Positions 19,765 through 21,063 of a stretch of 64,000 bases of DNA are shown in pieces. Position 1 is the stretch's first letter; the number at the start of each line of letters is the position of its first letter. The notes under the pieces are model-generated. The model made no database searches. It was not told the origin of the DNA and saw only the letters and a program-made list of their open reading frames with translations. The translations under genes were made by a program, and so were the position numbers. The DNA is from Escherichia coli (GTDB lineage Bacteria > Pseudomonadota > Gammaproteobacteria > Enterobacterales > Enterobacteriaceae), in NCBI RefSeq assembly GCF_016903815.1, contig NZ_CP069973.1. The stretch is one strand, 5' to 3'.

Positions 19765-21063
19765 GTGTCAAAGGCAACCGAACAAAACGACAAGCTCAAG
19801 CGGGCGATAATTATTTCAGCAGTGCTGCATGTCATCTTATTTGCGGCGCTGATCTGGAGTTCGTTCGATGAGAATATAGAAGCTTCAGCCGGAGGCGGCG
19901 GTGGTTCATCCATCGACGCTGTCATGGTTGATTCAGGTGCGGTAGTTGAGCAGTACAAACGCATGCAAAGCCAGGAATCAAGCGCGAAGCGTTCTGATGA
20001 GCAGCGCAAGATGAAGGAACAGCAGGCTGCTGAAGAACTGCGTGAGAAACAAGCGGCTGAACAGGAACGCCTGAAGCAACTTGAGAAAGAGCGGTTAGCT
20101 GCTCAGGAACAGAAAAAGCAGGCTGAAGAAGCCGCAAAACAGGCCGAGTTAAAGCAGAAGCAAGCGGAAGAAGCGGCAGCGAAAGCGGCGGCAGATGCTA
20201 AAGCGAAGGCCGAAGCGGATGCTAAAGCTGCGGAAGAAGCTGCGAAGAAAGCGGCTGCAGACGCGAAGAAAAAAGCAGAAGCAGAAGCCGCCAAAGCCGC
20301 AGCCGAAGCGCAGAAAAAAGTCGAGGCAGCCGCGGCGGCACTGAAGAAGAAAGCGGAAGCGGCAGAAGCAGCTGCAGCTGAAGCAAGAAAGAAAGCGGCA
20401 ACTGAAGCTGCTGAAAAAGCCAAAGCAGAAGCTGAGAAGAAAGCGGCTGCTGAAAAGGCTGCAGCTGAGAAGAAAGCGGCTGCTGAAAAGGCTGCAGCTG
20501 ATAAGAAAGCGGCAGCAGAGAAAGCTGCAGCCGACAAAAAAGCAGCAGAAAAAGCGGCTGCTGAAAAGGCAGCAGCTGATAAGAAAGCAGCGGCAGAAAA
20601 AGCCGCCGCAGACAAAAAAGCGGCAGCTGCAAAAGCAGCAGCTGAAAAAGCCGCTGCAGCAAAAGCTGCCGCAGAGGCAGATGATATTTTCGGTGAGCTA
20701 AGCTCTGGTAAGAATGCACCGAAAACGGGGGGAGGGGCGAAAGGGAACAATGCTTCGCCAGCCGGGAGTGGTAATACTAAAAACAATGGCGCATCAGGGG
20801 CCGATATCAATAACTATGCCGGGCAGATTAAATCTGCTATCGAAAGTAAGTTCTATGACGCATCGTCCTATGCAGGCAAAACCTGTACGCTGCGCATAAA
20901 ACTGGCACCCGATGGTATGTTACTGGATATCAAACCTGAAGGTGGCGATCCCGCACTTTGTCAGGCTGCGTTGGCAGCAGCTAAACTTGCGAAGATCCCG
21001 AAACCACCAAGCCAGGCAGTATATGAAGTGTTCAAAAACGCGCCATTGGACTTCAAACCGTAA
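19765..21063 (+). CDS. tolA: Tol-Pal system protein TolA
   Basis: 432 aa; N-terminal MSKATEQNDKLKRAIIISAVLHVILFAALIW, long Ala/Lys/Glu-rich repeat domain II, conserved C-terminal domain. Confidence 0.97.
   Translation: MSKATEQNDKLKRAIIISAVLHVILFAALIWSSFDENIEASAGGGGGSSIDAVMVDSGAVVEQYKRMQSQESSAKRSDEQRKMKEQQAAEELREKQAAEQERLKQLEKERLAAQEQKKQAEEAAKQAELKQKQAEEAAAKAAADAKAKAEADAKAAEEAAKKAAADAKKKAEAEAAKAAAEAQKKVEAAAAALKKKAEAAEAAAAEARKKAATEAAEKAKAEAEKKAAAEKAAAEKKAAAEKAAADKKAAAEKAAADKKAAEKAAAEKAAADKKAAAEKAAADKKAAAAKAAAEKAAAAKAAAEADDIFGELSSGKNAPKTGGGAKGNNASPAGSGNTKNNGASGADINNYAGQIKSAIESKFYDASSYAGKTCTLRIKLAPDGMLLDIKPEGGDPALCQAALAAAKLAKIPKPPSQAVYEVFKNAPLDFKP
20150..20690 (+). repeat. Tandem degenerate coding repeats in tolA domain II (AAEKAAADKKAAAEK-type units)
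   Basis: Repeated gctgcagctga[ag]aa[ga]aaagcggc units visible in the DNA; the source of the low-complexity antisense ORFs in the track. Confidence 0.8.

Follow-up and report, generated by a model that had tools for sequence, protein, structure and literature searches.

The repeat-length polymorphism of tolA is the described system closest to the allele reported here. In Escherichia coli MG1655, the tract lies in the C-terminal part of domain II of TolA and consists of 13 imperfect units, each 15 or 18 bp long (Zhou, Michiels and Aertsen, PLoS One 7:e47766, 2012, PMC3477136), and a survey of 234 isolates (Zhou, Vanoirbeek, Aertsen and Michiels 2012, Res Microbiol 163:316), as relayed in that paper, gave 8 to 16 units, with 13 units in 66% of the isolates. 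Isogenic variants with 2 to 39 repeats were all at least partly functional, and those with 2, 6, 8, 13, 26 and 39 repeats were phenotyped: tolerance to deoxycholate was higher with more repeats, the plating of fd was down to 28-43% in all tested variants with a repeat number other than 13, and the very long variants performed worse at high salt and at low pH (PMC3477136). Repeat changes occurred at about 7e-5 in a RecA-dependent manner, and the selections gave contractions only, with expansions in 0 of 150 colonies (PMC3477136).

Domain II has also been studied by engineering and by comparison across species. Williams-Jones et al. 2023 (PNAS, PMC10666116) described it as an extended alpha-helix, described the SHLS motif of the transmembrane helix of TolA, and used engineered deletions of domain II and chimeras of the TolA and TonB domains II, in a study concerned with the stalk as a determinant of force transduction, stabilisation of the outer membrane and import of colicins. 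Across Proteobacteria, domain II has from 110 to 335 residues and is poorly conserved, in contrast to the conserved domains I and III (Mol Biol Evol 2025, PMC12204202).

The DNA analysed here, referred to as the window, is a stretch of 64,000 nucleotides of E. coli. It contains a tolA gene in which the following features were delimited:

19765..21063, plus strand: tolA coding sequence, with a GTG start and 432 amino acids plus the stop codon, from the list of open reading frames.
19942..20703, plus strand: domain II, predicted long alpha-helical stalk, residues about 60-313, from the AlphaFold2 helices and PMC10666116.
20437..20676, plus strand: tandem-repeat tract, residues 225-304; each of its 15 imperfect units is 15 or 18 bp long and encodes K(K)AAA(E/D/A).
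20770..21054, plus strand: domain III, the TolA C-terminal domain (Pfam PF06519, residues 336-430, 130.9 bits).

The assignment of this open reading frame is supported by several lines of evidence. A complete genome with 100% identical sequence has it annotated as tolA (WP_021523047.1), and the gene order of the window is ybgC-tolQ-tolR-tolA-tolB-pal-cpoB when its open reading frames are compared with the annotated operon of K-12 and of the identical genome. The protein matches the NCBIfam equivalog NF007065 over its full length with 554.8 bits, against a cut-off of 213, and TIGR02794 with 309.6 bits, against a cut-off of 59.45. Full-length E. coli TolA chains in the PDB align with it end to end, and its domain III region matches the entries 1tol, 3qdp, 2x9a and 1s62. 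Domain III, for which TolB, colicins and g3p are binding partners, is identical to that of K-12 in the protein alignment, and the SHLS motif of the N-terminal transmembrane helix (S18, H22, L29 and S33) is present and unchanged with respect to K-12. Domain II is abundant in Ala, Lys, Glu and Asp. Two antisense open reading frames of 235 and 165 amino acids (20103-20810 and 20222-20719, minus strand) cross the repeat tract, with a monotonous content of Ala/Phe/Ser or Leu/Gln/Pro; they are by-products of the low-complexity GCN/AAR codon repeats and give no evidence of genes.

The tolA of K-12 MG1655 (b0739, NC_000913 776342-777607) has 1266 bp and encodes 421 amino acids. The reading made earlier from the letters of the window without database searches (the sequence-only reading) had given the open reading frame 432 codons, about 11 more than the 421 of K-12, and both lengths were correct. 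The alignment of the two genes revealed 15 SNPs, of which a single one is non-synonymous (A186V in the protein alignment), and one difference in length, a gap of 33 bp in the K-12 sequence. Where K-12 has this gap, the window has AGCTGAGAAGAAAGCGGCTGCTGAAAAGGCTGC twice in perfect tandem, 20430-20462 being equal to 20463-20495:

20430..20462, plus strand: copy 1 of the 33-bp segment, made of two repeat units (18 + 15 bp) and present as a single copy in K-12.
20463..20495, plus strand: copy 2 of the 33-bp segment, with 33 of 33 bases identical to copy 1.

The duplication adds the peptide AEKKAAAEKAA (11 residues) in frame to the C-terminal part of domain II. The proposal that the extra length comes from the tandem Ala/Lys/Glu-rich repeats was therefore borne out. 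The interval that had been given for it, 20150-20690, does correspond to the whole Ala/Lys/Glu-rich region, but the indel itself occupies only 20430-20495. That the extra codons might instead be an artefact of annotation or of the choice of start codon, or might reflect a wrong length for the K-12 protein, can be dismissed, given that the K-12 protein does have 421 residues, that the two genes share the same GTG and align without gaps over the first 665 nt from it, and that the difference is an internal block of 33 bp. The remaining statements of the sequence-only reading, that group A colicins and g3p of Ff phages make use of TolA and that the number of repeats alters the length of the stalk, agree with publications (PMC3477136).

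Exact identity at an offset of 33 extends over 39 bp in the window tolA because both copies and the unit that follows them begin with AGCTGA; this 6-bp sequence opens each copy and is found again at 20496, at the start of the next repeat. Within these 39 bp, the choice of which copy counts as the extra one is arbitrary. The unit downstream of the two copies differs from them at 5 of 33 positions, and Tandem Repeats Finder reports a period of 33 bp with 3.5 copies, 90% match and a score of 172 at 20430-20543. The mean identity at lag 33 in the tract is 0.68, and the probability of 33 consecutive matches by chance is about 3e-6.

When the units were parsed in 20 alleles, with the tract defined as in PMC3477136, the window gave 15 units and K-12 gave 13. 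The 33 bp (18 + 15 bp) are a whole number of units, and the count of 15 lies inside the natural range of 8-16 units, as this range is relayed in PMC3477136. The allele resembles the series of Zhou et al. in the gene, the tract, the 15- and 18-bp units encoding K(K)AAA(E/D) and the change of copy number in frame. The end of the tract, KAAAA KAAAE, is kept in all 20 parsed alleles, including that of the window; the last two units, the 12th and 13th of K-12, have been implicated in the binding of CpoB/YbgF. On this evidence, the intragenic tandem repeat (VNTR) already known from E. coli tolA is very probably represented in the window by a natural allele with 15 repeats. The duplication with its position and reading frame, the integrity of domains I and III, and the frequency of the allele, considered below, are directly observed.

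The stalk lengthened in this way can be compared with the two other described systems. With the constructs of PMC10666116 the window allele has in common that the stalk spanning the periplasm is a tunable determinant through its length and structure, but those constructs are drastic replacements and deletions, whereas the window has a natural extension of the native helix by 11 residues (about 4%). As in PMC12204202, domain II is the part of TolA that varies in length, but the variation described there is between species and includes changes in composition (helical versus proline-rich), whereas here it is found within one species and is attributed to slippage of repeats.

The distribution of tolA lengths was evaluated with two samples spread by rank, one with the window allele and the other with the K-12 allele as query, each with 60 rows of which 59 were full-length. 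The queries had fixed flanks in tolR and tolB, the allele length was read from the span of the match, and the counts of carriers were taken from identity bands and from the match spans of longer queries. The samples are evenly spaced by score rank, not random, and the database is clinically biased, so that the frequencies are approximate: the 421-residue form was found in 76 of 118 sampled genomes (64%), that of 436 residues in about 9% of the 118, and that of 432 residues in 5 of the 118 (about 4%). The last value agrees with the 222 carriers in the band of at least 99% identity to the window allele, which has 215-222 of the 5,425 complete E. coli genomes. The frequency measured for 13 repeats, about 64%, is close to the 66% of the published survey as relayed in PMC3477136, and the 13-repeat allele was sampled in K-12, BL21, APEC O78 and Nissle 1917.

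More than 200 complete genomes, sequenced independently by many laboratories in many countries, have the identical allele of 1299 bp. This makes it exceedingly improbable that the duplication is an error of sequencing or assembly in a repetitive region of low complexity, an explanation that draws on the fact that repeat tracts can mis-assemble and on an example of a possible error at this very locus, the frameshifted tolA of L013 described below. An in-frame change by a clean unit of 33 bp also argues against it. The carriers of the identical allele include WCHEC4533 and WCHEC96200, which are published ST405 isolates. For strain 50579417, an assignment to ST410 was considered and a literature search gave no support for it.

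A tolA match was absent from 1 of 5,426 complete genomes, and a few genomes have only partial matches, for example CAVP773, where the match is cut at the end of the record. Some matches fall on records labelled as plasmids, all with 0.28-4.9 Mb; plasmid-borne tolA was discarded, these records being mislabelled chromosomes or fragments of chromosomes. An exact look-up with an explicit Met start in a collection of 15 billion proteins returned neither the 432-residue TolA of the window nor the 421-residue TolA of K-12, which may be due to low-complexity filtering or to a different stored start.

In total, 19 length classes were seen, from 394 to 448 residues, all in frame except for one genome with a 1-bp homopolymer frameshift. 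Relative to 421 residues the offsets are -27, -26, -21, -17, -15, -14, -11, -5 and -1 among the shorter forms, and +3, +5, +8, +10, +11, +15, +16, +26 and +27 among the longer ones. These values rule out that natural alleles are limited to multiples of 11 residues, by which the helical phase would be kept. For 16 of the length classes, 18 alleles were fetched and translated; the three classes seen only as match spans differ from 421 residues by multiples of 3 bp. All 19 of the 19 sequenced natural length variants are in frame, and the tract does not act as an on/off phase-variable contingency locus in this set. Among 13 aligned alleles every indel is within domain II, with no differences in domains I and III. 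The neighbouring proteins are also constant in the 19 annotated genomes (18 sampled and strain 7/2), with a single TolR protein accession in all 19 and a single TolB accession in all but two.

The sole frameshift in the sampled alleles lies outside the tract, where a homopolymer is changed by 1 bp. It belongs to E. coli A1.S1.126 (L013:166-1475), whose tolA annotation records a frameshift; in the linker that joins domain II to domain III, six consecutive G are reduced to five (G6 to G5), and the gene is otherwise identical to the 436-residue allele L012. The missing base may reflect a sequencing error, or the gene may truly be a pseudogene.

The length of tolA is varied not only by the tract but also by indels of domain II upstream of the 13-unit tract, in the region equivalent to about 20190-20440 of the window. 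A deletion of 48 bp in this region is found in two O157:H7 alleles (L005 and L020) and in strain AREA_505 (L009), a deletion of 42 bp in L006, and an insertion of 24 bp in L011. The 404-residue O157:H7 allele keeps 13 units and is without 16 upstream residues and one Ala. Sizing by PCR would therefore mis-assign the number of repeats in alleles of this kind. E. coli KFu022, from river water (L017:166-1509), has 18 units and 447 residues, which is above the 8-16 units reported for the 234 isolates, as given in PMC3477136. This 18-repeat allele and the indels upstream of the tract go beyond the variants of Zhou et al.

Two other genomes bear on the history of the window allele. E. coli E300082 (NZ_CM128602.1, L015:166-1464) carries the identical 33-bp duplication at the same position on a K-12-like haplotype; its tolA has 1 SNP relative to K-12 and 16 SNPs relative to the window, located on both sides of the tract. 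This points either to a recurrent duplication at the AGCTGA microhomology or to the transfer of a tract of less than about 330 bp. E. coli Survcare321 (NZ_CP076301.1, L018:166-1512) has no SNPs relative to the window and carries an additional tandem duplication of 48 bp (KKAATEAAEKAKAEAE twice), immediately upstream of the repeat tract and corresponding to 20389-20436 of the window, which brings its protein to 448 residues. This is a second, recent expansion in the lineage of the window, where the tract is therefore still changing.

For the origin of the allele, we infer a mechanism, a direction and, further below, a phenotype. A block of 33 bp made of two units (18 + 15 bp) would have been duplicated in frame from the common 13-repeat allele, the likely cause being replication slippage (slipped-strand mispairing) or unequal recombination within the tract of 33-bp periodicity, and the duplicated block would be bounded by the 6-bp microhomology AGCTGA. 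The 6-bp homology at the junction favours slippage, although the published contractions are RecA-dependent; 6 bp are too short for classical RecA-dependent recombination, and the mechanism may thus differ from that of the contractions measured in the laboratory.

The direction of the change was probably from 13 to 15 units, because most alleles, across many backgrounds, have 13 units and the two copies do not differ from each other. It is also conceivable that the 15-repeat form is the older one and that the 13-repeat form of K-12 arose from it by deletion, possibly repeatedly. The laboratory selections, which yielded contractions and never expansions (PMC3477136), and the occurrence of the same 15-repeat structure on two divergent haplotypes are in line with this order of events. 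Nonetheless, it is quite improbable, given that about 64-66% of E. coli have 13 repeats, among them the four strains named above, and that the 33-bp copies are 100% identical when neighbouring units show 5 differences in 33 positions. Identical copies amid divergent neighbours are the pattern expected for a young duplication, which agrees with an expansion from 13 to 15 units.

The secondary structure of the lengthened stalk was examined with a single-sequence AlphaFold2 model, used for this purpose only given that its global confidence is low (pTM 0.25), too low to tell a straight stalk from a hairpin. Helices are predicted at residues 60-200 and 204-313, with pLDDT of about 80-88 over most of their length, and the residues encoded by the 33-bp duplication lie inside a stretch confidently predicted as helical. 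The model has a helix break with a dip of local confidence at residues 201-203 (20365-20373 of the window), which could be a hinge, a hairpin turn or an artefact of modelling. If the helix is continuous, 11 residues would correspond to about three turns, roughly 16.5 Angstrom, with a rotational offset of about 20 degrees. The low pTM and the break at 201-203 make the geometry of a longer reach uncertain. Given that the alleles are not limited to multiples of 11 residues, the helical phase is evidently no hard constraint.

The extension leaves intact both the membrane anchor, SHLS motif included, and the binding domain at the C terminus. By analogy with the published series, a small quantitative shift, or none, would be expected for the 15-repeat allele in the tolerance to bile salts and in the uptake of filamentous phages and colicins, and a loss of Tol-Pal function would not be expected.

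The allele might nonetheless be adaptive in its carrier lineage, such as the ST405 clinical clone, rather than a neutral hitch-hiker, through a higher tolerance to bile salts or a lower susceptibility to Ff phages or group A colicins. The increase of deoxycholate tolerance with repeats and the lower plating of fd in all tested non-13 alleles (PMC3477136) are compatible with such a benefit, as are the apparent fixation of the allele in a successful clinical lineage and the presence of the same duplication on a second haplotype. The published effects, however, come from large changes, to 26 and 39 repeats or to 8 and fewer, and not from two additional units, many length classes coexist in E. coli with no obvious ecological pattern, and an allele is expected to be fixed in a clone simply by descent, which leaves adaptation unlikely in comparison with neutral hitch-hiking. 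It is similarly doubtful that a recurrent microhomology hotspot, the fixation in ST405 and the 48-bp expansion together are the outcome of selection favouring a TolA stalk of slightly greater length. If that were true, the length of tolA would be a tunable adaptive trait of the envelope in the wild.

The repeat polymorphism of tolA is already published, and the allele of the window is an ordinary and moderately common one. Beyond the confirmation of published work, in which the length of domain II varies naturally in E. coli, the significance of the finding is small. Differences in the length of tolA between strains are no ground for assuming errors of annotation, and by analogy with the engineered series, strains with 15 repeats, including ST405, may differ slightly from K-12 in the tolerance to bile salts and in the entry of filamentous phages and colicins.
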